Notes: generated from the letters alone by a model not told the origin. A stretch of 64,000 bases of DNA from an uncultured Dehalococcoidales bacterium (GCA_964394145.1 CAYMVL010000034.1:58660-122659), one strand, 5' to 3'; numbered from the stretch's first letter, positions 12,751 through 46,162 are shown. A program made the numbers and translations.

Positions 12751-13647
12751 TTATCCTTGTGGCACAACATAACCGATAAGTTTGTAAGCCAGTTTAGCCA
12801 GAAGGAAAGCACAGGACACGGGACCTTCTCCGGGGGAGAATTCCATTAAATCAAAACCCACTATCTGCTTGCAACGGGCTACTGATTTTATTATGTCCAA
12901 AAGCTCCTGATAGTCCATACCACCTGGTTCGGGAGTACCTACCGCAGACATAATGGAAGGGTCCAGAACATCTACATCGATGGTGATGTAGACCTCTTGA
13001 CCAAGCGAGCGAATTATCCGCTCAGCAGAGGACATGCCTGATCTCAAGCTGTCCATATAGAATGGCGTCATCTCATGCCGGGCCAAGAATTGCTTCTCCT
13101 CCAGGCTCAGGCTACGTATTCCCACCTGCGCAATGGGGCAGAGCTCAGAAATACGACGCATAACAGAGGCCTGCCCATACCTGGTGCCGAGATAGCTGTT
13201 GCGCAGGTCAGCGTGGGCATCAAACTGCAACACGGAAAGCCTGGGGAACTTCTGCTTAAAAGCCTTGACCGTTCCCAGAGAGAGTGAATGTTCCCCGCCT
13301 AGCATTACCACGAATTTGCCCTTCCCTAGCAAGTCTTCAGTGACTTCGTAAACCCTTTCAATCATGCCTTCAGGGTTAGTCATCAGGGGTTCGACCCGGG
13401 GTAGAGTATGAATGCCAACCTCGTGTATTTCGCGATTCAGTTCCAAGTCGTAGAGTTCGAGGTATTGGGAGGCATCAATAATGGCTTGCGGGCCGTCGCG
13501 AGTACCGCTCCGCCATTCGGTGGTCCCGTCATAAGGGACGGGCAGAATCACCACCCTGGCTCTTTCCAGGTCTGAGTAAGGCGGTGTCAGTCCAGCGAAG
13601 ACACGTGGTGGAAGGAATATCTCCCCTTCATTCCGCATGGCTGACAA
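12751..13647 (-). CDS. speB: Agmatinase / ureohydrolase family (SpeB)
   Basis: Arginase-fold metal ligands GGEHS, DAHADL, IDVDVLDPS. Confidence 0.85.
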   Translation of the reverse strand: MSAMRNEGEIFLPPRVFAGLTPPYSDLERARVVILPVPYDGTTEWRSGTRDGPQAIIDASQYLELYDLELNREIHEVGIHTLPRVEPLMTNPEGMIERVYEVTEDLLGKGKFVVMLGGEHSLSLGTVKAFKQKFPRLSVLQFDAHADLRNSYLGTRYGQASVMRRISELCPIAQVGIRSLSLEEKQFLARHEMTPFYMDSLRSGMSSAERIIRSLGQEVYITIDVDVLDPSIMSAVGTPEPGGMDYQELLDIIKSVARCKQIVGFDLMEFSPGEGPVSCAFLLAKLAYKLIGYVVPQG

Positions 13648-16800: not shown

Positions 16801-18489
16801 CTACATCTTCTCAGGAGCGGTCATGCCCATGAGATGAAGGACTCTGGCCAGGACAATCTGAGTTGCCCTGACCAGCTTCAATCGAGCTTTGCTCAGCTCT
16901 TCATCTTTGGAGACGACGCGGCATTGCTTGTAGAAGCTGTGGAAGACGGTGGCCAAATCCTGAGCATAGTAGGGCAGATGGTGAGGCTCCAGCATGGTGG
17001 CAACCTGCTCTATTATTTCGGGCAGAAGAATCAGACGCCGAATCAGGGTCAGCTCTGGCTCAGATGAGAGCAAAGAAACATCGCCGTTGCTATAATCTAT
17101 TCCCCGCTCTTGGGCAAAGTGAAGAATGCTGGCAATGCGGGCATGAGCGTACTGAACATAGTACACCGGATTGTCTGCCGATTGCTTCTTAGCTAGCTCT
17201 ATATCGAAATCCATCTGGGCATCGGCCGAGCGAGAAAGGAACGAGAAGCGGCAGGCATCTGAACCCACTTCGTCCAGTAGCTCCCGCAGTGTAACTATAT
17301 CGCCACTACGTTTGGATAGCTTCACTATTTCCTCTCCGCGCCTCAAGGTGACCAGCTGGCAGATGATTACTTTGAGTTGCTCAGGGTCCTGGCCGAGAGC
17401 TTTGATTACCGCTTTCATTCGCGGGACGTGGCCCTGATGGTCAGCGCCCCAGATATCAATGACCCAGTCGAATTTCCGTTCCACAAGCTTGTTGTAATGA
17501 TAGGCTATGTCGGAGGCAAAATAGGTAGGAGTACCATCGCCTCGCACAAGCACATTATCCTTATCCTCTCCCAAAGCGGTGGATTCAAACCAGGTGGCAT
17601 TCTCCTTCTGGACCACATAGCCATTGTTTTCCAGCAGTGATATTGCCTTGCGGTATTGCTCGCCTTGATACAGGCTCTTTTCACTAAACCATACATCGAA
17701 TTGAACGTTCAGCAGCTTCAGGTCTTCCTTGATTCCCTGTATCATCCTGGCGCATCCGACACGGCCCAACTCCGCGGTAGCTTCGTCCTGTGGCAGAGAT
17801 AGGTATCTATCGCCCTGCTCTTCAATGATTTGCCTGGCTAGGTCAATCATGTAATTACCCAGGTAGCCGCCGGAGGGCATTGCAGTTTCTTTGCCCTGGC
17901 CTTGCTGGTAACGAGCATAGAGAGATCGGCCAAAAATATCTATCTGATTGCCCATATCATTTATGTAGTATTCCTTTTCTACGGAGTAACCGGCGGCTGC
18001 AAGGACATTGGCCAGTGTGCTGCCCAGGACAGCACCGCGTCCATGACCTACATGGAGAGGTCCTGTGGGATTCACACTGACAAATTCAAGTTGGACTCGA
18101 CTACCCTCGCCAAGATCAATGTTACCGTACGATTCAGCAGCATCTAAAATCAGTCCCACCTGCGTGCTTAGCCAATCATTCCGGAAAATGAAGTTGATGA
18201 ATCCGGGTGGAGCAATTAGTGCCTTTTCAATTTCAGGCGGCGGTACTATCTGCTCAGATATCTTCTCTGCTATGGCCATGGGAGACATTCCCATGGAGTG
18301 GGCCAACTTCAAAGGGAGTCCTGAGGCAAAATCTCCATGCTCAGGATTCTGAGGGTGTTCAATAACAACTTCAGACAGAGATGCAGAGATAATTGTGCCC
18401 TGTTTTTGTGCTTCCAGCACCGCCTGTTCCAGACACTTCGCTAGTTTTTGTTTAATTGTGGGATTTCCTCGCCTGCTTCTCAATGACAT
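16801..18489 (-). CDS. argS: Arginine--tRNA ligase
   Basis: Class I HIGH motif [12 protein letters not shown]. 562 aa. Confidence 0.9.
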
Positions 18490-24491: not shown

Positions 24492-25850
24492 CTATATTAG
24501 CTCCTTCGCCTTCTTCAGCGCCATTTCGACCTGTTCCGGGGAAGTGCCCCCTATGCTGTTCCGAGCGGCTGCGGATGATTTCAAGGTTATGTTATATACG
24601 TCTTCGGCGAATAGGGGAGACAACTCGTGGTATTCTTTCAAGCTCAGCTCATGAAAACCCTTGCCTGTATTTGAGGCATATTCGCCCAGCTTAGCTACTA
24701 CTCCATAGGCTTCGCGGAATGGCAGGCCTCTCTTTACCAGGTAGTCGGCTATATCGGTAGCTAATAGGTAATCCTTTCTAATAGCCTGGCTAATACGCCT
24801 GGCATCGACCCTGACTGTCTTTACCATCTCAGCAAACACTGATAAGCTGGCATCTAAGGTATCCACGGTATCAAAGAGTCCTTCTTTGTCCTCCTGCAAA
24901 TCGCGGTTGTAAGAAAGAGGTAGAGCTTTCATAGTAATCAGAAGGCCCAGAAGGTTGCCATAGACTCGCCCGGTTTTCCCTCTGGCTAGCTCAGCCACAT
25001 CGGGATTTTTCTTTTGAGGCATAATGCTTGAGCCTGTGGTAAAGGCTGCTCCAATTTCTAGGAAGCCAAACTCAGACGATGACCATAAAACAAGCTCTTC
25101 AGCCCACCTCGAAAGGTGCATCATTGCCAGGGCAGCTATTGCTTCAAATTCTATCACAAAATCTCTGTCTGAGACCGCATCAATGCTATTAGTGCTCACT
25201 CTGGCGAAACCCAGTTCCCGGGCAAGAAATTCTCGGTCCACAGGGTACGAAACGCCAGCTAAGGCACCGCTACCCAGAGGCAAGACATCAACTCGTTTAA
25301 GGCAGTCATATAATCGCTCTTTATCTCGCTGAAACATCTCGAAATAGGCCAGCAAGTGGTGTGCTAGAAGAATTGGCTGTGCCTGCTGCAAATGAGTATA
25401 GCCAGGCATGATGACATCTTTATTTGCTTCGGCTAATTCCACCAGCGAACTTTGCAAGGTTTTTATTCTGTCAACGGTTCTTAGAATCTCTTCTTTGACG
25501 AACAGGCGTAAATCCAAAGCTATTTGGTCATTTCTCGACCTTGCGGTATGTAGTTTCCCTGCTACATTACCTATCTTTTCGAACAGTCGCGCCTCAATGT
25601 TCATATGTATGTCTTCAAGTTCAGCTTTGAATTGAAACTTCCCATGCTCGACTTCCTCGCGGATAGAGATAAGTCCCTTCGTTATAGCCTCAGCATCGCT
25701 GTCAGCTATTATTCCCTGCTTTGACAGCATCCTCGCGTGAGCGACCGAACCGGTGATGTCCTCGCGATATAATCGCTGGTCAAACGGGATAGAGGCAAGA
25801 TATTTTCTTGTTAGCTCACTCTTGTTCTTCAGCATTACCCTTTTGCTCAA
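24492..25850 (-). CDS. argH: Argininosuccinate lyase
   Basis: Fumarase/ASL signature SRNDQIALDLRL... GSSIMPQKKNPD. Confidence 0.9.
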   Translation of the reverse strand: MSKRVMLKNKSELTRKYLASIPFDQRLYREDITGSVAHARMLSKQGIIADSDAEAITKGLISIREEVEHGKFQFKAELEDIHMNIEARLFEKIGNVAGKLHTARSRNDQIALDLRLFVKEEILRTVDRIKTLQSSLVELAEANKDVIMPGYTHLQQAQPILLAHHLLAYFEMFQRDKERLYDCLKRVDVLPLGSGALAGVSYPVDREFLARELGFARVSTNSIDAVSDRDFVIEFEAIAALAMMHLSRWAEELVLWSSSEFGFLEIGAAFTTGSSIMPQKKNPDVAELARGKTGRVYGNLLGLLITMKALPLSYNRDLQEDKEGLFDTVDTLDASLSVFAEMVKTVRVDARRISQAIRKDYLLATDIADYLVKRGLPFREAYGVVAKLGEYASNTGKGFHELSLKEYHELSPLFAEDVYNITLKSSAAARNSIGGTSPEQVEMALKKAKELI

Positions 25851-27042
25851 ATAGCAATTGTGCCTGAGCTTGAGTTCTTACGGGCAGCCCCCAGATATGG
25901 ATGAAACCAGGAGAAGCGCTCTGGTCGAAGGCATCGCCTTTATCATAAGTAGCCAGGCTGTAATCATAAAGAGAATATGGCGATTTCTTACCTACTATCT
26001 GGCAACTGCCTTTGAAAAGCTTGACCCTGATACTGCCGGTGACGTATCTCTGTGTGCTTTCCACATAAGAAGCCAGGTCCTGTCGCATACCTGTAAACCA
26101 CAGCCCGTTATAAACAAGGTCGGCATACTCAGTAGCTACTTTGGCCTTGAAGCGCAGCTGTTCCTTAGTCAGCACGAGATTTTCTAGCGCCTGGTGGGAT
26201 TCAAGGAGAACCACAGCTGCCGGCGCCTCGTAAACCTCCCTTGATTTTATGCCCACAAGCCTATTCTCCACGTGGTCAATTCGCCCAACACCATGCTCAC
26301 AGGCTAGCTGATGGATTCTGTGGACAAGAGTCACAGCATCCAATTCTTCGCCATCAAGGCTTACCGGGATCCCCTTATCAAAGCCAATCACCACATAAGC
26401 AGGCTTCCCGGGGGCTGCTTCAGGAGACTTTGTCCAGAGAAAGACGTCATCGGGAGCTTCATTCCAGGGATCCTCCAGGACGCCGCATTCAATGGCTCTT
26501 CCCCACAAGTTCTCATCAATCGAATAAGGGCTGGCCTTAGTAATAGGGATAGGGATATTATGCAATTGAGCATAGGCAATTGTCTCTTCCCTGGTCATAT
26601 TCCATTCTCTAGCCGGGGCTATTACCTTAAGTTGAGGGGCCAAGGCTGCTACGCTGACATCAAACCTTACCTGGTCGTTCCCCTTGCCGGTGCAGCCATG
26701 GGCCACCGCTTTGGCGCCCTCCTTTTCAGCCGCCTCCACCAGGAGTTGGGCCATAAGAGGCCGTCCCAGAGCAGTGGCTAGAGGATATTGATTTTCGTAG
26801 CATGCGTCGGCCTGAAGAGCGGGGAAGGCAAAGGACTTAATGAATGGTTCTCTGGCATCAATCACCAATGCCTTTATGGCCCCTACGGCAAGTGCTTTTC
26901 GTTTAATAGCCTCAAGGTCAGCTACATTACCCACATCCACTGTGAAGGCGATTACATCCATATCATACCGCTCTTTGAGCCACTTTATGGCTACCGAAGT
27001 ATCCAGACCGCCGCTATATGCCAATACTACTTTATCCGACAT
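25816..27042 (-). CDS. argG: Argininosuccinate synthase (start placed at the internal Met of MSDKVVLAYSGGLDTS; the ORF as listed extends to 27072)
   Basis: PP-loop AYSGGLDTS. The internal start removes the overlap with argD. Confidence 0.9.
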   Translation of the reverse strand: MSDKVVLAYSGGLDTSVAIKWLKERYDMDVIAFTVDVGNVADLEAIKRKALAVGAIKALVIDAREPFIKSFAFPALQADACYENQYPLATALGRPLMAQLLVEAAEKEGAKAVAHGCTGKGNDQVRFDVSVAALAPQLKVIAPAREWNMTREETIAYAQLHNIPIPITKASPYSIDENLWGRAIECGVLEDPWNEAPDDVFLWTKSPEAAPGKPAYVVIGFDKGIPVSLDGEELDAVTLVHRIHQLACEHGVGRIDHVENRLVGIKSREVYEAPAAVVLLESHQALENLVLTKEQLRFKAKVATEYADLVYNGLWFTGMRQDLASYVESTQRYVTGSIRVKLFKGSCQIVGKKSPYSLYDYSLATYDKGDAFDQSASPGFIHIWGLPVRTQAQAQLLFEQKGNAEEQE

Positions 27043-28285
27043 GTTTACTCCTTGCTTTCTCGGCCAAGACATCCTGCAAAATGCTAATGGCCTTGTCTAC
27101 TTCCCTTTCAGTTATAATGAGTGGAGGCATGAATCGAAGCGTTGTTGGCTTCACCCTGTTAACCAGGAAGCCCTTGTCGATGCAAGCCATCACCACCTCT
27201 TCAGCAATTTCGCTATCAAATTCCAAAGCTACCAGTAACCCTCGACCTCTTACTTGAGTGATAAACTCGAATTGGCGCTTTAGATTTTCAAGCTTGGTCA
27301 TAAAATATTTGCCCACTTGCTCTACCCTTTGGGGGATATTGTTCTCGATGATATACTTCAGGGCAGCATAAGCAGCCGCACAGGCTAACGGGTTGCCACC
27401 GAAGGTAGAGCCATGTTCGCCCGGGGAGAAAAGGGAAAACTCTTCTTTGGCCAGAAATGCGCCGATGGGCACACCGCTGCCTAGCCCCTTAGCCAGTGTC
27501 ATTATATCCGGTTCTAAGTTATATTGCTCATAGGCGAAAAGCTTTCCCGTTCTACCTATTCCTGTCTGTATCTCATCGAGAATGAACAGGATTCCTTTCT
27601 GGCGACACCAGCTTTGCACTTTGTGCAAATAGTCGTCATCGGGTACGTTGACTCCCCCTTCTCCCTGGATCGGCTCCAGTATCACTGCACAAGTTTGCTC
27701 ATCAGTTGCCTGTTCAATTGCCTCAACGCTATTATAATCAACGTTAACAAAGCCAAGGGGCAGAGGTATATAGGGGTCCTGAAATTTGCTCTGTCCGGTC
27801 GCAGCAGTCATGGCCAGAGTCCTACCATGAAAAGAGCTATAAGTAGATATGACTTTGTAGGCGCCGTTGAGGTGGAGTCTGCCGTACCTGCGGGCCAGTT
27901 TAACAGCTCCTTCATTAGCTTCAGCGCCGCTGTTACAGAAGAAGACCCTATCAAGGCAACTGTGTCCTACCAGAAGGCGCGCCAACTCTATCTGTGGGAT
28001 AGTATAGAACTGATTTGATGCTTGGATTAGAGTCTTGGCTTGCTTTTCCAGAGCCTTGACTACCACCGGAGGACAATGTCCCAGACTGTTTACCGCCCAA
28101 CCACCAACGAAGTCAAGATACTCTCTGTTATGGTCGTCCCATGCCAAAGCACCTTTTCCCCGAACCAGCGTTACAGGGACTCTGGCTGCCGTCCTCAGAA
28201 ACAATTGTTTCTCCAGCTCCTGCCAATTATCCTCGTACAATGGTTGTCCCTCCTGATTGAGATTGTGTCGTTCTGCTTCCAACAA
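27032..28285 (-). CDS. argD: Acetylornithine aminotransferase
   Basis: Class III PLP aminotransferase; DEIQTGIGRTG lysine-region motif. Confidence 0.85.
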   Translation of the reverse strand: MLEAERHNLNQEGQPLYEDNWQELEKQLFLRTAARVPVTLVRGKGALAWDDHNREYLDFVGGWAVNSLGHCPPVVVKALEKQAKTLIQASNQFYTIPQIELARLLVGHSCLDRVFFCNSGAEANEGAVKLARRYGRLHLNGAYKVISTYSSFHGRTLAMTAATGQSKFQDPYIPLPLGFVNVDYNSVEAIEQATDEQTCAVILEPIQGEGGVNVPDDDYLHKVQSWCRQKGILFILDEIQTGIGRTGKLFAYEQYNLEPDIMTLAKGLGSGVPIGAFLAKEEFSLFSPGEHGSTFGGNPLACAAAYAALKYIIENNIPQRVEQVGKYFMTKLENLKRQFEFITQVRGRGLLVALEFDSEIAEEVVMACIDKGFLVNRVKPTTLRFMPPLIITEREVDKAISILQDVLAEKARSKHVG

Positions 28286-29027
28286 CGCTGAGCAAATTAT
28301 GAGACATTCTGCCGTCGATGATATGAACGGCGGACACCGTCGCCAGAGCTCTAATGCTAGCTTCCAATTTTGGGATCATCCCGCCTGTAGCTATGTCGGA
28401 CTCGAGCAGCACCTTGGCCTCTGTGGTATTGAGCTTAGATATTACTCTGCCGGATGCATCCTGGACACCATCAACGTCGGTAAGGAAGATAAGCTTCTCG
28501 GCAGCCAACACAGCCGCGATTTCACCAGCAGCAGCGTCTCCATTAACATTAAGCAACATTATCTTGCCCTCGACTGAGCCGAAACTTACGGGCGCCACCA
28601 CCGGCATGTAGTCTTCTTTCAGCAATAGCTTCAATACGGTGGGATCGACGGCTACAATCTCCCCTACATAACCTAGCTCCGGACTTTTGCTGATTGCCCG
28701 GAGCAAATTGCCATCACAACCACTGACACCTACAGCCTTAGCTCCCAAAGCCTGAATTGCTACTACTAATTCTTTATTAACCAGGCCACCCAGGACCGCC
28801 GTTACCACCTTTAAGCTATCAGCATCGGTAACCCTCAGGCCATTTATGAAGCTTGTGGAGATGCCAAGGCGGGAAAGCCAGTCGGAACTCATTTGGGCAC
28901 CACCATGAACCACCAGAGGGGAATTCCCCTGCCTTTGAAGCTCCACCAGGTCCTCTAAAGTGGTGTCATGCTTGCCCAGCGTACTGCCACCAATCTTTAC
29001 TACTATTGTCTCTCTTGGCAAAGTCAC
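28227..29027 (-). CDS. argB: Acetylglutamate kinase
   Basis: VVKIGGSTLG amino-acid kinase N-terminus. 266 aa. Confidence 0.9.
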   Translation of the reverse strand: MTLPRETIVVKIGGSTLGKHDTTLEDLVELQRQGNSPLVVHGGAQMSSDWLSRLGISTSFINGLRVTDADSLKVVTAVLGGLVNKELVVAIQALGAKAVGVSGCDGNLLRAISKSPELGYVGEIVAVDPTVLKLLLKEDYMPVVAPVSFGSVEGKIMLLNVNGDAAAGEIAAVLAAEKLIFLTDVDGVQDASGRVISKLNTTEAKVLLESDIATGGMIPKLEASIRALATVSAVHIIDGRMSHNLLSVVGSRTTQSQSGGTTIVRG

Positions 29028-29035
29028 CCTCTGTT

Positions 29036-30235
29036 TTAGGATGTATACTCGCTGTTTATCCTAACATATTCCTCAGAGAGGTCGCAGCCCCAAGCAGTGG
29101 CTTTGCCCTTTCCTGAATTGAGACATACCCTAATAAGTACAGTGTCACTGCTGCTCAAACTCACTATCATCTTATCTTTACTGAACAAGGCGGGTACACC
29201 CTGCTTCATAACGCAGGTACCATTTAAATATACATCTAGCCTGTCTTCTATTACCTTGGCTCGGCTCCGTCCTATAGCCGCAACAATACGTCCCCAGTTG
29301 GGGTCACTGCCATGTATAGCGGTCTTGACTAGCGGTGAACTGGCAATGGTTCGGGCTGCCAGGCAAGCTTCCGCTTGCTTGAATGCTCCCTCGACGCTAA
29401 CCTCAATGAGCTTAGTTGCCCCTTCGCCATCCTGAGCTATAGACTTGGCCAGCTGGATACAAACCTGGTTCAAGGCTTCCTGGAAGGCAGCACCATTGCC
29501 AGAATGGATCGGGGGGTTAGCAGCCAAGCCATTAGCCAGCAAGAATACGGAATCGCTGGGGCTGGTATCCCCATCAATGCTAATCATATTAAAGGAAAGA
29601 TCCGCTGCTTGCTTGAGGGCGGAGTGCAGAAATAGCGCATCTACCGAAGCATCCGTCGCTATGAAGCAAAGCATTGTAGCTAGGTTAGGATGTATCATAC
29701 CGGATCCTTTTGCTATCCCGGCGATAGAGAATCCAGCTCCGCCGTCACCAACGTGAACGGCTGTCTCTTTAGATTTAGTATCTGTGGTCATCATCGCCTT
29801 GGCAAGGCTGTGACCGTCTCTGCGGCTCAGCTCCATTTTCCGGATTCCGGCCCTTATACGATCCATAGGTAGTGGCACCCCAATTACACCGGTGCTAGCC
29901 ACAAGGACTTCCTCCGCAGATATGCCCAGCTTGGATGCTGTCAGGCTTGCCATTTCCAAAGCATCTGCTAGACCCTGCTGTCCCACACAAGCATTAGCAC
30001 AACCTGAGTTTACCACAATTGCCTGCGCCCGGTTCATGGCTAAATGTCTCCGGGATAGGATAACAGGAGCTGACTTGATCTGATTGCTGGTGAAGACGCC
30101 AGCGGCAGTGCAGGGCAGTTCGGAGTAGAGAATGCCCAGGTCAAGCTCGCCATTGGTTTTCATACCAGCGTTAACCGCTCCAGCCATAAAGCCCGCGACC
30201 GAAGTAATGGTGGCGGAAGGGATGAACTTGAACAT
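29036..30235 (-). CDS. argJ: Bifunctional ornithine acetyltransferase / N-acetylglutamate synthase ArgJ
   Basis: 399 aa. Autocatalytic ATML-type site (LATMLCFIATDA). Confidence 0.9.
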   Translation of the reverse strand: MFKFIPSATITSVAGFMAGAVNAGMKTNGELDLGILYSELPCTAAGVFTSNQIKSAPVILSRRHLAMNRAQAIVVNSGCANACVGQQGLADALEMASLTASKLGISAEEVLVASTGVIGVPLPMDRIRAGIRKMELSRRDGHSLAKAMMTTDTKSKETAVHVGDGGAGFSIAGIAKGSGMIHPNLATMLCFIATDASVDALFLHSALKQAADLSFNMISIDGDTSPSDSVFLLANGLAANPPIHSGNGAAFQEALNQVCIQLAKSIAQDGEGATKLIEVSVEGAFKQAEACLAARTIASSPLVKTAIHGSDPNWGRIVAAIGRSRAKVIEDRLDVYLNGTCVMKQGVPALFSKDKMIVSLSSSDTVLIRVCLNSGKGKATAWGCDLSEEYVRINSEYTS

Positions 30236-37159: not shown

Positions 37160-37349
37160 CGATGCACAACGATGAGCATTGGTTACCGACGTTTGATAGG
37201 ACAATGGCGGAAGGAATATAATCAGGTATGTTGACATAGTGCGAAGAATGACCAAGCACTAGCACCTGAGACGATATCGACTGTGCAAGAACTGGTATAG
37301 ACGTCAAAGGTTGCCTGAGATCACAAGATTAGTTCTAGAGGGGTATGAG

Positions 37350-38624
37350 ATGAGAAAGTCAGCATTACTTGTGTTGAAATTGGCGATGTTGGTCGGGCTA
37401 GTATGTTGTAGTCAGGTAGTGTCAAATCAGTTGATAAAGTCGAAAAAACAGCGAAATGCCTGGCCAGCAGCAAATGAAACTGACCTTGCAATGCTGGTTG
37501 CTGGTAATAGTGACTTTGCTTTCGACCTATATAGGACAATACGGCAAACGGGAACTAACCTGTTCTTCTCACCGTACAGTATATCGGAAGCGCTGGCAAT
37601 GGCTTATGCTGGTGCTCGTGGTGATACCGAGAAAGCTATGGTTGAAACTCTTAACTTCAACCTATCACCCGATTGCCTGCACCCGGCATTTAATAGCCTT
37701 GACCTTAGGTTCAAGGAGCGTGGTAAAGGAGCAAAAGGTAAGGACAAAGATGGTTTTAGACTGCATATAGTCAACGCCATCTGGGGACAAAAGGGCTATG
37801 ATTTTCTGGAGGGATTTCTCGACGTTCTTGCCCAGAACTATGGTGCAGGGTTGAGGGTACTGGACTTCATAAATGACACGGAGGAGTCACGGGTCGCTAT
37901 TAACAAATGGGTTAGCGACCAGACTGAGGGAAGAATCAATGGACTGGTTCCAAAGGGGGCGATAGACCCGCTAACACGACTCGTCTTAACCAATGCTGTC
38001 TACTTTAATGCAGCTTGGGAATCCCCCTTCAGTAAGAATTTGACTTCTGACGATACCTTCCATCTAATGGGTGATATTGATATCACTGTTCCCATGATAC
38101 GGCAAACCAAATCCTTCCGCTATACCGAAGGTGATGTTTATGAAGCTATTGAATTACCGTATGATGGGCATGAACTCTCCATGCTTATCCTGCTACCCAA
38201 AGCTGGGCAATTCGATGCCTTCGAAGAACTCTTGAACACGGAGCTTGTTAGGGCAATCACTGGCAAGTTAGAGTTGAATGAAGTGGCGCTGACAATGCCA
38301 AAATTTGAATATGAGTCCAATTTCGGCTTAAAAGAAGCACTCAGGAGGCTCGGCATGAGAGTGGCTTTTGAAGGGGGGGCTGATTTCTCAGGGATGAACG
38401 GTAATCGCGACCTGTTGATACAGGATGTCCTGCATAAAGCTTTTGTCTCCGTAGATGAAGCTGGCACCAAGGCAGCTGCGGCTACCGCAGTGATAATGGG
38501 GATGAAATTTATGCGCGCACTCGCGATCGAACTCAAGGTTGACCGCCCGTTCATCTTCCTTATCCGGGACATACCAACTGATAGCATAATATTTCTGGGA
38601 CGTCTTCTTAATCCGGCAAAATAG
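37350..38624 (+). CDS. Secreted serpin (serine protease inhibitor family) with N-terminal signal peptide; predicted P1 = Lys
   Basis: Signal peptide MRKSALLVLKLAMLVGLVCC preceded by GAGGGG RBS. Serpin core motifs NAVYFNAAWESPF, hinge EAGTKAAAATAV, and FKVDRPFIFLIRD. Confidence 0.85.
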   Translation: MRKSALLVLKLAMLVGLVCCSQVVSNQLIKSKKQRNAWPAANETDLAMLVAGNSDFAFDLYRTIRQTGTNLFFSPYSISEALAMAYAGARGDTEKAMVETLNFNLSPDCLHPAFNSLDLRFKERGKGAKGKDKDGFRLHIVNAIWGQKGYDFLEGFLDVLAQNYGAGLRVLDFINDTEESRVAINKWVSDQTEGRINGLVPKGAIDPLTRLVLTNAVYFNAAWESPFSKNLTSDDTFHLMGDIDITVPMIRQTKSFRYTEGDVYEAIELPYDGHELSMLILLPKAGQFDAFEELLNTELVRAITGKLELNEVALTMPKFEYESNFGLKEALRRLGMRVAFEGGADFSGMNGNRDLLIQDVLHKAFVSVDEAGTKAAAATAVIMGMKFMRALAIELKVDRPFIFLIRDIPTDSIIFLGRLLNPAK

Positions 38625-38663
38625 GGCACAATTCACTCATGAGGTCTCAAAATGAAAATCTGA

Positions 38664-38700
38664 ATATGGAGTGGTTGTATCCGAGTCACTCCATATGATC
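38664..38700. terminator. Hairpin between convergent serpin and C11-peptidase genes (possible bidirectional terminator)
   Basis: ATGGAGTG-(13 nt)-CACTCCAT inverted repeat sits between the two stop codons. Confidence 0.3.
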
Positions 38701-38721
38701 TTAATCGTCGGCTGGCCGTAT

Positions 38722-41184
38722 CTATCTCACGGTGATGCCAGTCAGGGCCTGCTGCTGATTACCGTCCAGGTCTGCGACCACAAAGCCCAGTGCATAATCC
38801 CCCGCGGCGGCGTCCAGCGTCTCCCAGGTAAACATTTGCGCTCCAAATGTCAGCGTGCTCCCGTCTTGAAAAACGGTAGCGCTCACCTGCCCGTTGCTGT
38901 CCAGATCCAGCCATTCTTCACGAACCGTGAACCTATCACCGGCGCTGGGAGTTATCTCGCGTGGAGCACTGGCCTCGCTTTCACCCGTGAAACCAAACAC
39001 TTGACGCATCACTCCATTAATGAAGTACAGGCGGGCTTCAAGATGTTGGCCGCTGTCAGCAAAGGTGTATATCCCATCGACTGTATAGGTAGCCTCTTCG
39101 GCATTGCGCCCGTAATCTTCAGGTTTGAACAGGGCTGGTACTGAAGTAGTCCCATCGCTGATTGCGAAAACCACTGGTTCCCAAACGAATTCCAGTGTGA
39201 AGTCACCCTGACCCCAATCAGGATAATAGACACCATTAACCTGCCGAATTTTAGAACTCTCCAGGTAATCCTGGTCAGCTACGAAGATTGAATTGGATGC
39301 CTGGTCGTAGAAACCCACGAACAAATAGATGTGGCCGATGTTGTCACCGCTTATATCGGCACTCAGCGTCACCGGCTGACCAGGGGCAGCTTCTGTATCG
39401 GAAGCGGCAACTGGAGAGACACTGATGCCACCAGCTGCAGGAGCACGCACGGACCCACTGGCTGGAACTACTGCCCCCGTATCACTGTCTGCGAACTTAC
39501 GACCGGAATAATGATAAGCCAGAAAATCATCCCAGAGAGATTTGCCGGCAAAGCGGCTGGCGATGGCTGTATAGGACTCCGCTCCTGTAATCGAGTTCTG
39601 GTAGAGCTGCGAGTTGGGAAAGTAGATTGCCACACCTGTAGCACCTGGTTTCTGAGGGCCATGCTTTTCGGCAATCACTGCCTGCCTAATAGTGGAGAGC
39701 ACGTCGTCAGCTGCCTGGGTGATTTCAGCATTGCTTGTATTTTGCGTGACTATCTGCAAAAAGTTACCAAGGTCAATGTATGAGGGCGGGACTTGGGAGC
39801 CAAAGACACTCGTAAAGCTCTCAGCATAGCTACGGCTGCCAGCTAGTGTCTTCTGGTCAGCCTTCTGGAAAATGAAAGCCAGGTTATTCAAGCTGCTGTT
39901 CAATATACTAATTTTGGACAGGTCGACTGCCGTCAATGTACTGCTCTGCCCTATCTCACGGGCTAATTGCTGGGGAGAAACATCCGTCGGCTGGCCGAAA
40001 AGGCCTCCCAAGGGAGAACCCTGGCTAAGGAAATCTGCCCTTGCGCTGCTATCCAGAATAATCTGATCCTCCTCAATATAGCCCTGCACGATCAACCTGG
40101 AGAACTCTGCCCCATCCATGTCGGGGTTCTGTGTCAACGCCTTCAGAAAATCGGTATAAGCCCAACCCAAGGACGGTTCCACCTCCTGAGAGGCGACCGC
40201 ATAACGGGCGTGTGGCTCCAGAGCAGTAAAAACCTCCACCTGGCCCATTAAGCAAGCATCGAGCCCGATCATTTCAAATTTATCTAACCCTGTATTAGCC
40301 CGAATCTGGTCAAGTGCATCGTCCATCTCATTCAGGTAAAGCATATCGCCCAGGCGAGCCTGCATAGGAATAGTGGTGTCCACACTACCTTTAGGGATGG
40401 AGTCAGTCCAGCCGCCAGGCCAGCCCATCCCATGGTCAGAGAGTATCAGAACATGTTTATCGGCCGGATAGGACTTAATGGCCCAGGAAGCGAAGTCAAT
40501 CAGAGTCTGGCTGGAGGACATGTTGAGTTCACCCAAATTAGCTACTTGCTGCGAAGCTAATCGCCCCAGGTTATCATCCTGACTGATTAGAAAGCATCTG
40601 GTATCTGTCCAGTCGCCGTCTCCGCTGTAAGCTCCATCGTACCGGTCAACCTGCGCCACTATTTTAACCCGATCCGACGCACCTGCTTTTTCGGCTTCGT
40701 TCAAATCAAGATAGATATCTTTTTCCAGTATATTGTCATCGGCATCCTGGTAGAGCATAACTAACCAGGTCTGGTCGGTCCTGGTCGAAGTCTCGCTGGT
40801 TATTTCAGGGTAGTTCGTGACAAATGGGGCAGCCGAGTCCAGACTCGAGATCTGGCCAGTGTCCGAGCCAGTCGAGGGGAGCGTAGGCAGGGAATGCCCG
40901 TCTTCAGGGCTGGGAGTTCCGCAGCTCCGCACTCCAAAAATGATAACAGCTATAATAATCACGATAATAATAGAAACAACTGACATGCAACCCTTGCTTC
41001 CACGAGTAGGTAGCCGACTCCTGATGCTAGATCCTGAGCTAGCACCCATTCCAGCCCTTGCATCTCCGACCTGCCTGCGCTGGGGCGCCTCAGCGCGTTC
41101 GCGCCCACCCTGCGGTGCAGCTTCAGGTTTGCGGCGACGCCGAGCTTGAATTATGCGCTTCTTCCGATCCCCGTTGGAAGTCAT
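38722..41184 (-). CDS. Clostripain-family (peptidase C11) cysteine protease, membrane-anchored, with large C-terminal extension
   Basis: Arg-rich cytoplasmic N-terminus, single TM VVSIIIVIIIAVIIFGV, catalytic His (ILSDHGMGW) and Cys (MIGLDACLMG) in C11 order. 820 aa. Confidence 0.8.
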   Translation of the reverse strand: MTSNGDRKKRIIQARRRRKPEAAPQGGRERAEAPQRRQVGDARAGMGASSGSSIRSRLPTRGSKGCMSVVSIIIVIIIAVIIFGVRSCGTPSPEDGHSLPTLPSTGSDTGQISSLDSAAPFVTNYPEITSETSTRTDQTWLVMLYQDADDNILEKDIYLDLNEAEKAGASDRVKIVAQVDRYDGAYSGDGDWTDTRCFLISQDDNLGRLASQQVANLGELNMSSSQTLIDFASWAIKSYPADKHVLILSDHGMGWPGGWTDSIPKGSVDTTIPMQARLGDMLYLNEMDDALDQIRANTGLDKFEMIGLDACLMGQVEVFTALEPHARYAVASQEVEPSLGWAYTDFLKALTQNPDMDGAEFSRLIVQGYIEEDQIILDSSARADFLSQGSPLGGLFGQPTDVSPQQLAREIGQSSTLTAVDLSKISILNSSLNNLAFIFQKADQKTLAGSRSYAESFTSVFGSQVPPSYIDLGNFLQIVTQNTSNAEITQAADDVLSTIRQAVIAEKHGPQKPGATGVAIYFPNSQLYQNSITGAESYTAIASRFAGKSLWDDFLAYHYSGRKFADSDTGAVVPASGSVRAPAAGGISVSPVAASDTEAAPGQPVTLSADISGDNIGHIYLFVGFYDQASNSIFVADQDYLESSKIRQVNGVYYPDWGQGDFTLEFVWEPVVFAISDGTTSVPALFKPEDYGRNAEEATYTVDGIYTFADSGQHLEARLYFINGVMRQVFGFTGESEASAPREITPSAGDRFTVREEWLDLDSNGQVSATVFQDGSTLTFGAQMFTWETLDAAAGDYALGFVVADLDGNQQQALTGITVR

Positions 41185-42293
41185 ACGGGACCACCAATCC
41201 TTTTTGAGGATTCTCTGTTTCCGTACTGCGTTAAGCCTGAGGCAGCCGGTTCAGATGGTGTAAACAAAGCGTTAAATACTTGTTTCATTTGCTTGTCTGC
41301 ATCGATGAGTCGACATATCAACGTTCTAACCTATAGAAGAGCAACCTTGAGCTTCCCAGGGCAAAAGATAAGCAACTATGCTGTACATAGAGCTCCTTTC
41401 AAGTGTGGTTGATGAGATATTATATAGGTTTATATGAAAATTTCCCATACTAAGTGATGAAGTGGTGGCGTTTTTTGATGAGAGTAGCTCCGGTGTTAAG
41501 AGCTAAGTCCACTATTCATAATGGGTCAGACACTAGGGTCTCCACTATACATGCATTGCCAATTTCTGCTGGTGTTGAAATTGATAGCTACTCACCCCAT
41601 ATCGGTTCACAAAAAGACTGTACCTTAGCTTTCCGTCGCTGCTTATGAAGACTCAATTGCTGGTCCTATTCCGATTTTCAGCAGTAATGTGGCTGCATAT
41701 TTACTGACGAGTCGTCGAACTGAGAGTTAGGATACTTGAGAGAAAACCTTGCTTACGGAAGGAGCCAGAGCGGGCGAGAGAAGACGGTAGCAGGGACCAA
41801 TCCATGCTCTTTTTGGTCTCGTGCCTGCGTTGAGCCGTGTTCTCGTTATGGTGCGGGGAAGGCTCTTATTAGAGCGCCGTCAAGTGTGACTTATTCGTAT
41901 GGGCTGATAACAAGTTGACCGTGGTAGCGCTTTGGCTGACTTACGGCTCAGTTTGAGAGAAGAGGGAAGGGTGATGCTAGCCGTTTGTGTGCTTGTGGAG
42001 TCTATGTGTCACACAGTAGCCTGAAGCCGGCAATTGCTTCAGGGTTTAACTGAAGAAAGAGCAGACCCAGATAAAAGCTCCCATCTATCCTCCAATCAGG
42101 CCCAGTCTTCTTTCAGAGAGGTAAGGTTTCCCTATTTACCTGATTTTACTCAGCTGCGGATGATGGCCAATCCTCAAGTCTACCTCAATAGTCAATGGCA
42201 CAACCGATGAGCATCAAAAGGGCGAAAAATAAGACTTCGCTGGTATTTGCTGCAATATAGTAGGCAGTGCCGGTATGACGAAGCGGACTCTAT

Positions 42294-42659
42294 TTAGGAT
42301 TCTAGTTTACCGGCTTTGTCTTCCTGCCGTATTTCTTCATAGCTATCCAAAATTCTAGCTGCAATAGTGTCAATGTCTTCAAAGCCCCCAGCTTCGTAGT
42401 ACCTGAAATAGCAGTTTTCGGGCGGCTCTGGCTCATGTAATCGTATTAATAGTCTCTTGTGCAGATTTGAAATCTTTCCCAAACGCCAGAGTTTTTTCCC
42501 GCCGGGGCTGACATACGCTATTTCATAGACCCCCGGAGCCTCGGGCACGCTATTAACGTTTTCTTTTGTGAATTTAATCCAGGTCTTCTCTGCTCCCACT
42601 AAAGTTGCCCTCACAAAGGCCTTACATGATGGAAGGTAACCCTCACCATGTTGCTGCAT
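42294..42659 (-). CDS. Small GIY-YIG (URI) nuclease-domain protein
   Basis: PGVYEIAY...GKKLWRLGKISNLHKRLLIRLHEPE fits GIY-(10-11)-YIG...R...H...E. Confidence 0.5.
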   Translation of the reverse strand: MQQHGEGYLPSCKAFVRATLVGAEKTWIKFTKENVNSVPEAPGVYEIAYVSPGGKKLWRLGKISNLHKRLLIRLHEPEPPENCYFRYYEAGGFEDIDTIAARILDSYEEIRQEDKAGKLES

Positions 42660-42980
42660 TATAGCATAGTTGTTTTACCATTATGGTAACCCGTGATAGT
42701 AATTCAGTATTGATGATAAGTATGCCACGAGTGTTACCGAATATCTCAGCGTCCACATCCTGCCTAACTCAATAGCTCAGATTCTGCTGGGTGGACCATT
42801 TTTCTTCATGGATATGCAGACGGTCTTCATCAATTCCACCCTCTATTGACCAAATGGAGAAATTTTGGTAGCATAGTATAAGGCAGCTGACCTTTAAGGC
42901 AGTGAGCTTGAAATTAGAGTAGACGAGTTTTCCGCTTGGATCGGTAACGACTGAGACGGATTAACAGGGTGTGATGCGAT

Positions 42981-43016: not shown

Positions 43017-43168
43017 ATGTACTGTGTCATAAGTGAAGTTCATACAATTGGAGTAGGACGGCATACCGGTAGAAAAGGAACGACGGTCTTTATGGCAATT
43101 CGCCCTGAGCAATGGGCCGTAGCTTGGGTCGATTTCAGTGGCTTGGTAGCAGCAAAGCATCTGGTGTG

Positions 43169-44026
43169 ATGATGAAAGTTGGCTTTATTGGCGCTGGAAC
43201 GGTGGGCACGGCATTAGCAGTCAGGCTTTACAGAGCAGGGTGTGCTGTAGTCTCTGTGTCCAGCCGAAGTCCACACTCGGCACACAAATTGGCTGAGCTG
43301 GTGAGTAATTGTGAAGTCTACCAGAATGGCCAGGGGGTAGCAGATACCGCTGAACTGGTTTTCATCACTACTCCTGATGATGTTATAGCCAAGGTTGTGG
43401 GTGAGATTGGGTGGCATGCAGGACAGGATGCCATCCACTGTAGTGGTGCGCATTCTATTGATATTCTGGAGCCGGCGAGGCAATCAGGGGCCAATGTGGG
43501 TTCTTTCCACCCACTCCAGACATTTGCGAGCTATGAACAGGCTATGGAGAATTTGCCCGGGTCTGCCTTTGCGTTAGAGGCTGAGGAACCTCTATTAACC
43601 AAGTTGAAGCAACTAGCTCATATTTTAGGTGGGAGCTACATAGAGCTTAAGCCAGGGGACAAGGTGCTGTATCATGCTGCAGCCGTTTTTGCGTCTAACT
43701 ATCTGGTGGCTTTGGTCAAGTTAGCCGTGGATTTATGGCAGTATTTCGGGGTGTCACCCGAAGAGGCACTTAAGGCTTTGATGCCTCTGCTCAAAGGTAC
43801 GATAAGCAATATTGAGAGTATTGGTTTACCTCGTTGTCTCACAGGGCCTGTAGCTCGCGGGGATTTGAGTACAATAAGCAAGCATTTGAGTGGCCTTAAA
43901 GCTAGAGACTCTGGTTTATTGACCACTTATAGAGAATTGGGTCTTCAGACTATTCCTATTGCTCTGGCTAAAGGCGGAATCGATGCCCGGAGGGCAACCA
44001 TGTTGGAGGCGTTGCTTAAGCAATAG
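43169..44026 (+). CDS. Rossmann-fold / DUF2520 oxidoreductase (putative ketopantoate reductase, PanG-like)
   Basis: MKVGFIGAGTVGTALA dinucleotide fold. First gene of the panD-panB-panC operon. Start placed at the internal Met (the listed ORF starts at 43112). Confidence 0.65.
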   Translation: MMKVGFIGAGTVGTALAVRLYRAGCAVVSVSSRSPHSAHKLAELVSNCEVYQNGQGVADTAELVFITTPDDVIAKVVGEIGWHAGQDAIHCSGAHSIDILEPARQSGANVGSFHPLQTFASYEQAMENLPGSAFALEAEEPLLTKLKQLAHILGGSYIELKPGDKVLYHAAAVFASNYLVALVKLAVDLWQYFGVSPEEALKALMPLLKGTISNIESIGLPRCLTGPVARGDLSTISKHLSGLKARDSGLLTTYRELGLQTIPIALAKGGIDARRATMLEALLKQ

Positions 44027-44042
44027 ATAAAGGAGAGAGAAA

Positions 44043-44444
44043 ATGAGAACCATGTTAAAGAGCAAGATTCATCGAGCTCGAGTTACACAGGTTAACCTAG
44101 GTTATGAAGGTAGCATTACCATTGACAAATCTCTCCTGGAGGCCAGTGATATCTTGCCGTTTGAACGAGTAGAAGTGCTAAACATCAATAACGGCGCCAG
44201 GTTCAGTACTTACGCTATAGAGGGAGAGGACAGTTCAGGCGTTATCTGCGTCAATGGTGCTGCTGCCAGGCTGGTTGCAAAAGGGGATATAGTGATCATC
44301 CTTTCTTACTGCCAGATTGCGGATGATGAGGCGATGGTTGTCACACCAACCAGAGTTTATGTGGATAGCAGAAACAGGATTATTGAACCCCCGTCTATAG
44401 GTCCTATTTCTGGAAGTCAAAGAGATGTAGTGAGTGCGAGGTAG
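44043..44444 (+). CDS. panD: Aspartate 1-decarboxylase
   Basis: [11 protein letters not shown]...L.YEGSItID. Pyruvoyl processing site G-S. Confidence 0.9.
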
Positions 44445-45294
44445 TAATGCCATGAGGGTTACCATCGCTGAGATAAAGGAAATGAAGCGGAAAGGGGACA
44501 AAATCCCCATGCTCACTGCTTACGATTATGTCACGGCTAAAATAATCGATGAAGCTAATGTACCTTTGATCCTGGTTGGAGATAGCCTTGGTATGGTGAT
44601 GTTGGGCTACGAATCAACTATACCCGTGACTATTGATGAGATGTTACATCATACTAAAGCTGTGGTGAGAGGTGCTAGGAAGGGTCTGATAGTAGGTGAC
44701 ATGCCTTTTATGACCTATCATATGAGTATTGCCGAGACTCTACGCAACGCGGCGCGTTTGATCCAGGAGGGAGGGGCTCAGGCTGTGAAATTGGAGGGGG
44801 GTGAAGTTGTTGCTGAGGAAATAAGGCACCTTACAGAATGTGGCATACCTGTTATGGGGCATATTGGCTTTACCCCGCAATCGATACATCAATTGGGTGG
44901 ATTCAAAGTACAGGGAAGAGCACTAGAGGAAGCTAAGAAATTGTTGCAAGATGCCCTTATTTTGGAGCAGGCTGGCGTTTTTGCTACCGTTTTGGAGTGT
45001 ACTCCAGCACCTCTTTCTAAGCTGATTACCCGGAAGCTAGCTGTTCCCACAATAGGCATCGGTGCAGGACCCTATTGTGATGGACAAGTCCAGGTAATCA
45101 GCGATATTCTGGGGCTTTATACCGATTTTGTCCCCAAGCATTCCAAGCAATATGCTAAGTTGGCGGGGGAAATAGAGGCTGCCGTGGCTGGCTATGTATC
45201 TGAAGTTAAGACGCAAAGCTTCCCCACCATGAAACAGAGCTATGCTATGGATGAGAGTCTCCTTGAGTCTCTTGAGACCCTATCTTCTTCTTAG
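44434..45294 (+). CDS. panB: 3-methyl-2-oxobutanoate hydroxymethyltransferase
   Basis: Family motifs [23 protein letters not shown]. Confidence 0.9.
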
Positions 45295-45328
45295 TAGTAA
45301 GTGGGGAAGATTAGGCTGGTAGTGAGAA

Positions 45329-46162
45329 ATGCAGGTGGTCAGGGCTGTCTCTGAGATGGGGGAACTGAGGAGACAACTCAGCAGCTCCGTTGGCTTTGTA
45401 CCTACCATGGGCTATCTTCACGAAGGACATCTGTCTCTGGTGAGACAAGCCAAAGCAGAAAATTCTAGCGTTGTAGTTAGCATTTATGTGAATCCTGCCC
45501 AGTTTGGTGCAAGCGAAGATCTTGTAGCTTACCCACGAGACTTAAACCGTGACCTGGCACTCTTAGAAGAGGAAGAAGCAGACATAGTGTTTGTTCCTCC
45601 TGATGAAGAAATGTATCCGTCCGGGTTCAGTACTTGGGTGGATGTGGAAAGAGTAAGTGAGTGTCTTGAGGGGGAGTCGCGGCCGGGCCATTTCAGAGGA
45701 GTGGCAACGATTTGTGTTAAGTTGTTCAATATTGCCCAACCGGCCAGGGCGTACTTTGGACAGAAGGATGCTCAGCAAGTAATAGTCATAAAGCGGATGG
45801 TAAGCGACCTCAATATGAACCTTGACATTGTGGTTGTTCCTACAGTCAGGGAGAGCGACGGCCTAGCCATTAGCAGCCGTAATATCTACTTACGGCCTGA
45901 CGAACGCCAGTCGGCGGCGGTTCTCTTTGGTGCCTTATCTTTAGCCAAGGAGTTATGGCAGGATGGGGAGAGGGATGCGGACATAATTCGCCGGCAAATG
46001 ATATCGCACATCCAGAAGGAGCCACTGGCACGGATTGACTATGTGAGTATCGCTGATAGTACTACTCTGGAAGAACTGGAACATATTGAGTATATGGCAC
46101 TGGTATCACTGGCCGTTCGTATTGGCAGAGCTAGGTTAATAGATAACATAATCCTGCGGTAA
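45329..46162 (+). CDS. panC: Pantoate--beta-alanine ligase
   Basis: VPTMGYLHEGHLSL HIGH-like motif. Confidence 0.9.
   Translation: MQVVRAVSEMGELRRQLSSSVGFVPTMGYLHEGHLSLVRQAKAENSSVVVSIYVNPAQFGASEDLVAYPRDLNRDLALLEEEEADIVFVPPDEEMYPSGFSTWVDVERVSECLEGESRPGHFRGVATICVKLFNIAQPARAYFGQKDAQQVIVIKRMVSDLNMNLDIVVVPTVRESDGLAISSRNIYLRPDERQSAAVLFGALSLAKELWQDGERDADIIRRQMISHIQKEPLARIDYVSIADSTTLEELEHIEYMALVSLAVRIGRARLIDNIILR

Follow-up and report, generated by a model that had tools for sequence, protein, structure and literature searches.

A lysine-P1 serpin encoded tail-to-tail with a membrane-anchored C11 peptidase in an uncultured Dehalococcoidia bacterium: a candidate protease–inhibitor pair

To our knowledge, little has been established about what bacterial serpins inhibit in their natural setting. 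In the present study a locus was analyzed in a stretch of 64,000 nucleotides from an uncultured Dehalococcoidales bacterium (GCA_964394145.1, CAYMVL010000034.1:58660-122659; the whole stretch is called the window below), where a serpin gene and a gene for a clostripain-family (C11) cysteine peptidase stand tail-to-tail, both found in the places and in the convergent orientation that an original prediction, made from the sequence, had given them. Trapping of clan-CD cysteine proteases by a serpin is known from the viral CrmA, which acts on caspases. AtSerpin1 of Arabidopsis provides a precedent for a serpin that traps an Arg/Lys-specific clan-CD protease, metacaspase 9 (work cited in PMC2064784). 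The pair in the window would resemble both systems in cross-class suicide inhibition of a clan-CD protease with a His/Cys dyad by a serpin whose P1 residue matches a strict S1 preference, which for metacaspase 9 is a basic one. AtSerpin1 and CrmA, however, work inside the cells of eukaryotes or as viral proteins and have no genomic link to their targets, whereas here the candidate target is a bacterial, membrane-anchored C11 peptidase and the link is genomic only.

Protease and inhibitor genes lying side by side in one genome are known from staphopain/staphostatin and SpeB/Spi, and inhibitors of the staphostatin/Spi type may stay in the cytoplasm when the protease leaves it. Unlike the pair in the window, these systems use inhibitors other than serpins, act on papain-like proteases of clan CA and have both genes in one transcript. 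Among bacterial serpins, miropin acts on plasmin through a Lys site in its loop and has, like the window serpin, an inhibitory hinge. The plasmin inhibited by this Tannerella forsythia protein is the human one (PMC8233489), and for miropin, as for other bacterial serpins that have been characterised, the targets are taken to be proteases of the host, which distinguishes them from the candidate described here. The closest solved homologue of the window serpin is chloropin of Chlorobium limicola (8gxv), which has the same hinge, a basic P1 and a reactive-centre loop (RCL) of comparable length (one gap of one residue); it is an active inhibitor that was tried only on mammalian serine proteases (PMC10090351). 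Chloropin carries Arg-Ser at P1-P1', whereas the window serpin carries Lys-Phe and has a conserved C11 neighbour.

Peptidases of family C11 are widespread in anoxic sediments and in gut bacteria. With PmC11 of Parabacteroides merdae and with clostripain, the window enzyme shares the His/Cys dyad, the S1 Asp at the second position ahead of the Cys, a basic His+14 residue and the fold, at 14-21% identity in structural alignments; it differs from both in its Arg-rich tail, its transmembrane (TM) anchor and two C-terminal beta-sandwich domains. Our literature search found no endogenous gene-linked protease partner for the characterised bacterial serpins, no work linking a bacterial serpin with a C11 peptidase, and no description of a natural protein inhibitor of family C11.

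What is new here is that, as judged by comparison of sequenced loci, the serpin/C11 pairing is confined to a single serpin clade with Lys at P1, and a cognate pair of a serpin and a clan-CD protease appears moderately supported. The switch of P1 to Lys at the same node as the C11 adjacency offers a concrete pair for bench testing, one that is clean, directly testable and bears on what bacterial serpins do. If the pairing is functional, cross-class serpin inhibition of clan-CD proteases, which is known from viruses, animals and plants, would extend to bacteria, and a handle would be gained on the function of an unstudied Chloroflexota C11 of 820 amino acids (aa). Tentatively, the C11 might then be the first endogenous gene-linked target of a prokaryotic serpin, within a unit for the control of surface proteolysis that includes a DUF4126 protein, and the serpin the first proteinaceous inhibitor of a C11 peptidase.

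The serpin matches its Pfam family over the full length (PF00079, E 7e-112, model positions 2-370 of 370), and 193 PDB serpins match it at E<=1e-20. Its start had been placed at a TTG (37311), in preference to which we set the ATG at 37350 behind a GAGGGG site, most likely the true start and the one that public gene callers also chose. The hinge, E370-A-G-T-K-A-A-A-A-T-A-V, has Glu at P17, Gly at P15, Thr (for Thr or Ser) at P14 and small residues from P12 to P9, where neither Pro nor a charged residue occurs, and thus agrees with the inhibitory consensus, given for chloropin as ExGTEAAAA from P17 to P9 (PMC10090351). The intact inhibitory hinge proposed earlier is thereby borne out, and by hinge type the assignment of the serpin to the inhibitory subclass is supported. 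Counting from P17 Glu or from P15 Gly372 makes Lys386 (codon 38505-38507) P1 and Phe387 P1', and independently, in a HMMER alignment to chloropin (E 5e-78), Lys386 falls on the chloropin P1 Arg, a site that had been verified by measuring the mass of the C-terminal peptide set free on cleavage (mass spectrometry, PMC10090351). Since the two placements agree, the predicted P1 Lys holds. Two other cleavage sites were considered, of which the first was rejected. Arg389, P3' in this numbering, would be P1 if one counted back from the C-terminal DRPF, but this Arg is unconserved and replaced by Pro in most members of the clade, and the constant length of the RCL in the family counted against it as well; cleavage after the hydrophobic P2 residue is disfavoured in the Lys-P1 clade, whose members all keep the Lys but differ at P2 (M/T/P/V). 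Ratios of non-synonymous to synonymous substitution (dN/dS) lie at 0.15-0.25 between the window serpin and its relatives and at 0.13-0.25 over all serpin pairs.

The peptidase is assigned to C11 by a Pfam match to residues 145-557 (Peptidase_C11, E 2e-34, 120.1 bits vs a cut-off of 25.8), while it stays far below the cut-off of the NCBIfam clostripain equivalog TIGR02806 (55.4 bits vs 550) and is therefore a member of the family, not clostripain proper. His251 (40432-40434), Asp309 (40258-40260) and Cys311 (40252-40254) align with the catalytic region of clostripain, correspond to His133, Asp177 and Cys179 of PmC11, and are invariant in an alignment of 23 orthologues. Asp177 of PmC11 lines an acidic S1 pocket that confers Arg/Lys specificity (PMC4850288), as the S1 Asp does in clostripain too, and with Asp309 the acidic residue expected for basic specificity is present, which agrees with the Arg/Lys-type peptidase that had been predicted. 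Lys386 of the serpin would accordingly suit the S1 preference that we infer for this C11, which presumably accepts Lys at P1. A further basic residue, Lys265 (40390-40392; His+14), aligns with the autoprocessing sites Arg190 of clostripain and Lys147 of PmC11; Lys or Arg occupies this site in all four serpin-adjacent C11s compared but in only 14 of 74 other orthologues, so that it is no feature of the whole orthologue group. The AlphaFold2 (AF2) model of the protein (pLDDT 68.9) has clostripain 9cip as its best Foldseek match (E 2e-18, TM-score on the target 0.65), further matches being the C11 zymogen of P. distasonis (6mzo), two C11 proteases of B. thetaiotaomicron (6n9j and 6nag, the latter called 'iotapain') and PmC11.

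The arrangement of charges around the single TM helix, with 18 K/R vs 5 D/E in the N-terminal tail (aa 1-66) and 1 K/R vs 7 D/E in the stalk behind the helix, predicts an extracytoplasmic catalytic domain and thus supports the type-II anchoring (N-in/C-out) that had been proposed for the 820-aa protein. The C-terminal region outside the C11 model, earlier given as about 330 aa and unassigned, amounts to about 260 aa and is predicted to form two beta-sandwich domains. In the tail itself a motif, RRR…R.RAEAP.R, recurs with little or no change across Dehalococcoidia, Anaerolineae and Ardenticatenaceae; it is modelled at pLDDT 76-90 for residues 11-40 and has no family matches.

Among 118 close homologues of the serpin, all with an RCL of essentially constant length, the canonical P1 is Thr in 101, Lys in seven, Arg in one and another residue in nine. 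A neighbour-joining tree, calculated with RCL and N-terminus masked, places the K/R-P1 serpins apart from a monophyletic Thr clade. A convergent C11 gene downstream was present in only two of 80 metagenome serpin loci, L084 and L125 (80% and 62% identity to the window serpin), both with P1 Lys, and in none of the other 61 loci whose sequence continues for 500 bp or more downstream of the serpin (in 34 of them for 1.5 kb or more). In total the convergent C11 was confirmed in six lineages, namely the window, L084, L125/L168, the P0208 locus, L164 and L169. A seventh is probable in P0129, where the serpin is followed by a convergent, unannotated gene that codes for 648 aa or more before the contig stops and is probably a C11. 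The co-occurrence that had been sought as a check thus exists in one Lys-P1 clade, whereas at the 80 C11 loci considered below no serpin was found nearby. In all C11-adjacent serpins P1 Lys is invariant, while P2 (M/T/P/V) and P1' (F/L/S) vary; in the subgroup P0125/P0126/P0127, which lost the C11 neighbour, the three members have K, R and S at P1.

A third gene, coding for a DUF4126 membrane protein, travels with the Lys-P1 serpin clade. It adjoins serpin and C11 in the window, L084, P0208, L164, L168 and L169, and stands beside the serpin in L165/L166 as well. The order is Dodecin, DUF4126, serpin and a convergent 854-aa C11 at the P0208 locus; DUF4126, serpin and convergent C11 in P0243/L169; serpin, a convergent C11 with interrupted frame, GYD and DUF4126, the latter on the far side of C11, in P0210/L164; and in P0241/L168 DUF4126 lies on the opposite strand, followed by the serpin and a convergent C11 at 79% identity. 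By tblastn (E<=1e-5) no DUF4126 gene was detected near Thr-P1 serpins, nor near C11 orthologues without serpin at the best 80 loci, and no functional literature on DUF4126 was found.

Within the Thr-P1 clade, sister to the Lys-P1 serpins and dominant among Chloroflexota serpins (loci L085-L163; proteins P0124-P0260; 101 of the 118 homologues), the loop reads …IVGL-T-S/A-xP… and the signal peptide ends in a canonical L[IL]GC. The only conserved neighbours of these serpins are serpin paralogues, often as tandem pairs (L117, L123, L127, L132, L153, L155). A further serpin homologue, P0143 (690 aa, on a 3.57-Mb contig, P1 Glu), has a full serpin preceded by the second part of another serpin domain, which suggests a partial tandem duplication or a fusion.

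On the peptidase side 2,425 homologues were scored, the best 120 of which are 54-74% identical to the query and nearly all cover 83-100% of it (two cover 74-80%). The alignment of 23 sequences from Dehalococcoidia, Anaerolineae and Ardenticatenaceae shows conservation of catalytic domain, C-terminal domains and N-terminal motif, and the 820-aa architecture, present in no fewer than 510 species, keeps 55-70% identity from one Chloroflexota class to another, so by sequence comparison this C11 is a phylum-wide orthologue group of the Chloroflexota. Its loci were scanned with one genome per species (at least 510 loci), and the best 80 were examined with up to 10 kb of flanking sequence. Conserved operon partners that could hint at the function of C11 were not detected, the commonest neighbour family occurring in 11 of the 80 loci. 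One orthologue of the Chloroflexota type, at 53% identity, comes from a contig (L041, CAZAMM010000011.1) that had been assigned to an 'uncultured Methanosarcinales archaeon', and a Thr-P1 serpin, P0213, is labelled 'Nitrososphaerota archaeon'; both labels probably reflect mis-binning rather than transfer.

The best single explanation of these observations, which we hold tentatively and at somewhat less than an even chance, is that the serpin traps its own C11 neighbour by cross-class suicide-substrate inhibition. A lipoprotein-type serpin copy would have come to lie tail-to-tail with the phylum-wide C11 gene in one Dehalococcoidia sublineage, and its RCL would have been retooled at P1 from Thr to an invariant Lys. 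Serpin and C11 would meet in the same compartment, where the exposed loop would present Lys386-Phe387 to the acidic S1 pocket (Asp309); Cys311 would attack and a thioacyl intermediate would form, the permissive hinge (GTKAAAATAV) would let the cleaved loop insert into beta-sheet A, and the protease would be trapped in a covalent complex, by which C11 activity would be limited at the outer face of the cytoplasmic membrane. Of the cognate protease/inhibitor module that the original prediction proposed, the match of P1 Lys to the S1 Asp and the pairing within one clade are retained. The pair is neither a general module nor an operon.

Several observations weigh against such trapping, and they concern chiefly the origin of the adjacency and the compartment. 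The C11 orthologue occurs in more than 500 species, and at none of its best 80 loci was a serpin found by tblastn within 10 kb, by which a general serpin-C11 module is rejected. The serpin-adjacent C11s are monophyletic within the Dehalococcoidia branch of the C11 tree; therefore the juxtaposition arose once, and the trees of both genes point to this single origin. The two genes are convergent and not co-transcribed, and in L170 and L171 independent changes from Thr to Lys at P1 occurred within the Thr clade without a C11 or DUF4126 neighbour, the L170 serpin having an upstream lipobox. As a control, pairs of C11 loci without serpin were scored for a common downstream neighbour according to C11 identity, and such a neighbour was kept in six of nine pairs at 75-85% identity and in four of 132 at 65-75%. 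Serpin-adjacent C11s are 79-86% identical to one another from His251 to the C-terminus, and since controls of like divergence keep unrelated neighbours this often, retention of the adjacency is by itself weak evidence. Furthermore, the C11 frame is not intact everywhere: L164 (9464-11937) has several frameshifts and L169 (1708-2301) has two, close to the 3' end, which may be assembly error or real decay; in L164, a long contig in which the serpin N-terminus is aberrant too, indel errors are suggested.

The single origin, the behaviour of the controls, the convergent arrangement and the Lys-P1 variants without C11 would all fit inherited synteny only, in which an ancestral rearrangement was simply never broken and the serpin inhibits another Lys-specific protease; possible targets would be another endogenous protease or serine peptidases of the trypsin type, whether from competitors or from the surrounding sediment. 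We regard this as the main rival, only slightly less probable than the trapping of C11. It gains from the L165 subgroup, where an intact serpin under purifying selection keeps its DUF4126 neighbour while the genes downstream are unrelated and C11 is missing, and from characterised bacterial serpins such as chloropin, which inhibit serine proteases through a basic P1. It does not readily account for the basic P1, which is rare (K/R in eight of 118) and whose appearance coincides with arrival beside a protease family of basic specificity, nor for the invariance of P1 Lys in the adjacent lineages, which gives way only where the C11 neighbour was lost. Synonymous sites of the serpin are saturated between the window and L168/L169 (synonymous divergence, dS, about 1.6), and in the window, at the P0208 locus and in L164 the trio of DUF4126, serpin and C11 is preserved within outer flanks that are not the same, DUF4126 taking three different arrangements across the loci; together with the P1 switch this adds weight to the synteny. 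In addition, none of the neighbourhoods retrieved, in the window or at the relatives' loci, contains a serine protease gene.

The compartment is the second difficulty for the trapping of C11 by the serpin. The N-terminal segment of the window serpin, MRKSALLVLKLAMLVGLVCCSQ, is homologous to the lipoprotein signal of its relatives (…LLGLIGCSQ), with a Lys within the hydrophobic core. A canonical lipobox at the end of a signal peptide follows the pattern [LVI][ASTVI][GAS]C; the window serpin has LVCC, with Cys instead of Gly at -1, where the Thr-P1 relatives have L[IL]GC. Judged by this segment, export is plausible and lipidation doubtful, so that of the secreted serpin proposed earlier the signal-like N-terminus stands and secretion has become uncertain. 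The signal peptide is lost in L165/L167, L168 and L169 (checked on the DNA) and in P0208 (as called). Serpins of L168, L169 and P0208, although without a signal, still adjoin C11 and are under purifying selection; therefore a presumably cytoplasmic form is kept beside a C11 whose active domain should lie outside. Signal loss as read from these N-termini conflicts with the predicted extracytoplasmic catalytic domain, and the comparative evidence as a whole derives from one evolutionary event and is burdened by this compartment problem.

Kept signal-less serpins and a lipobox decay across the whole Lys-P1 clade, which suggests a change of compartment, would be expected if the two genes were linked in a non-classical way, the serpin acting in the cytoplasm or close to the membrane as a guard against mislocalised or premature C11, or serving as a C11 substrate whose loop is cut at Lys, by which a different protease would be freed from inhibition. 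Staphostatin/staphopain and Spi/SpeB are established cases in which a bacterium secretes a cysteine protease and encodes next to it an inhibitor that stays in the cytoplasm. We nevertheless consider such a link unlikely, as the window serpin retains its signal-like N-terminus and a type-II protein inserted during translation should expose little of its catalytic domain to the cytoplasm; as to the substrate variant, sequence cannot tell substrate from inhibitor, and the hinge is fully inhibitor-like. That the serpin is non-inhibitory or the pair decaying, without any current protease-related function, as the degenerate lipobox, the loss of signal peptides in relatives and the interrupted C11 frames of L164 and L169 might suggest, is very improbable in view of dN/dS values of 0.13-0.25 for all serpin pairs, a perfectly conserved hinge, and a window C11 that is intact and belongs to a family 55-70% identical across classes.

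In L165 (1090-1340) and L167 (1-290) what is left of the lipoprotein signal can still be made out (…LVYCSQ and …LIRCSQ, respectively); stop codons in its frame break it up, and a new start Met follows shortly after it.

The features of the locus are collected in Table 1.

Table 1. Position, strand and basis of the features at the serpin/C11 locus, counted from the first letter of the window.
Feature	Position	Strand	Basis
DUF4126 multi-pass membrane protein gene, 188 aa	36593..37159	+	Pfam PF13548, E 4.7e-45
Promoter-like site TTGATA-18-TATAAT, 11/12 matches, between DUF4126 and serpin	37193..37222	+	Consensus pattern match only
Serpin coding sequence, 424 aa + stop	37350..38624	+	Likely ATG start behind GAGGGG Shine-Dalgarno-like site
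N-terminal signal-like segment MRKSALLVLKLAMLVGLVCCSQ	37350..37415	+	Comparison of N-termini, alignment
Hinge and reactive-centre loop, E370 to V397	38457..38540	+	Hinge counting, chloropin alignment
10-bp perfect inverted repeat ATATGGAGTG / CACTCCATAT, 13-nt loop	38664..38696	.	Inside inter-stop spacer
C11 (clostripain-family) cysteine peptidase gene, 820 aa	38722..41184	-	Pfam, structure and alignment
Two tandem beta-sandwich (FnIII/Ig-like) domains, aa ~585-820	38725..39432	-	Phylum-conserved
C11 catalytic domain and helical C-terminal subdomain, aa 140-560	39505..40767	-	Pfam, Foldseek, alignment
Single transmembrane helix, ~aa 67-87	40924..40986	-	AF2 helix 69-87; hydrophobic run VVSIIIVIIIAVIIFGV
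Cytoplasmic Arg-rich N-terminal tail, aa 1-66	40987..41184	-	Alignment, charge count, AF2

The stop codons of serpin and C11 are separated by a spacer of 97 bp with a minimum free energy of -25.1 kcal/mol on the plus and -22.0 kcal/mol on the minus strand. Its inverted repeat possibly forms a bidirectional terminator hairpin, which a terminator scan missed because a T-run is absent. As the genes are convergent and the serpin has a promoter-like site of its own, the two do not form an operon.

The window belongs to the chromosome of an uncultured bacterium of the Dehalococcoidia (Chloroflexota). An identical C11 protein is encoded on several JGI contigs from sediment metagenomes, which reach 105 kb in length, and the closest named relatives of both serpin and C11 are Dehalococcoidia/Dehalococcoidales metagenome-assembled genomes. 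The flanks hold housekeeping genes (arginine biosynthesis, ArgRS, RecG, FakA/DegV, ThiC, MTHFR, a pan operon, PNPase), and with these flanks and an unremarkable GC content an origin from a mobile element or by horizontal transfer was rejected. No further protease gene was present in the annotated parts of the window (about 1.9-50 kb and one gene at 52.6-54.8 kb). A reading as a defence system was likewise set aside, PADLOC giving no match for the serpin, the C11, DUF4126 or a neighbouring 121-aa protein.

Upstream of the C11 start, 1.1 kb (41185-42293) contain no open reading frame (ORF) longer than 88 aa, no Rfam match and no tRNA; public gene callers set odd short genes here (76 aa over 776 bp in L001, 56 aa in L002). 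The adjacent 121-aa ORF (42294-42659, minus strand) has a DUF7508 match below threshold (23.2 bits vs a cut-off of 26), is kept only in identical contigs and stands outside the conserved set of three genes. Arginine-metabolism genes at 24492-30235, 12751-13647 and 16801-18489 (argH, argG, an ArgD-like aminotransferase, argB, argJ, an arginase-family gene and arginyl-tRNA synthetase) lie in the same window as the Arg/Lys-type peptidase, which we note as a coincidence only. A match to the 'pan motif', a cis-regulatory RNA (Rfam RF01749), at 42882-42963 on the plus strand (37.4 bits vs a gathering score of 36.2) precedes a Rossmann-like/DUF2520 gene, panD, panB and panC (43112-46162).

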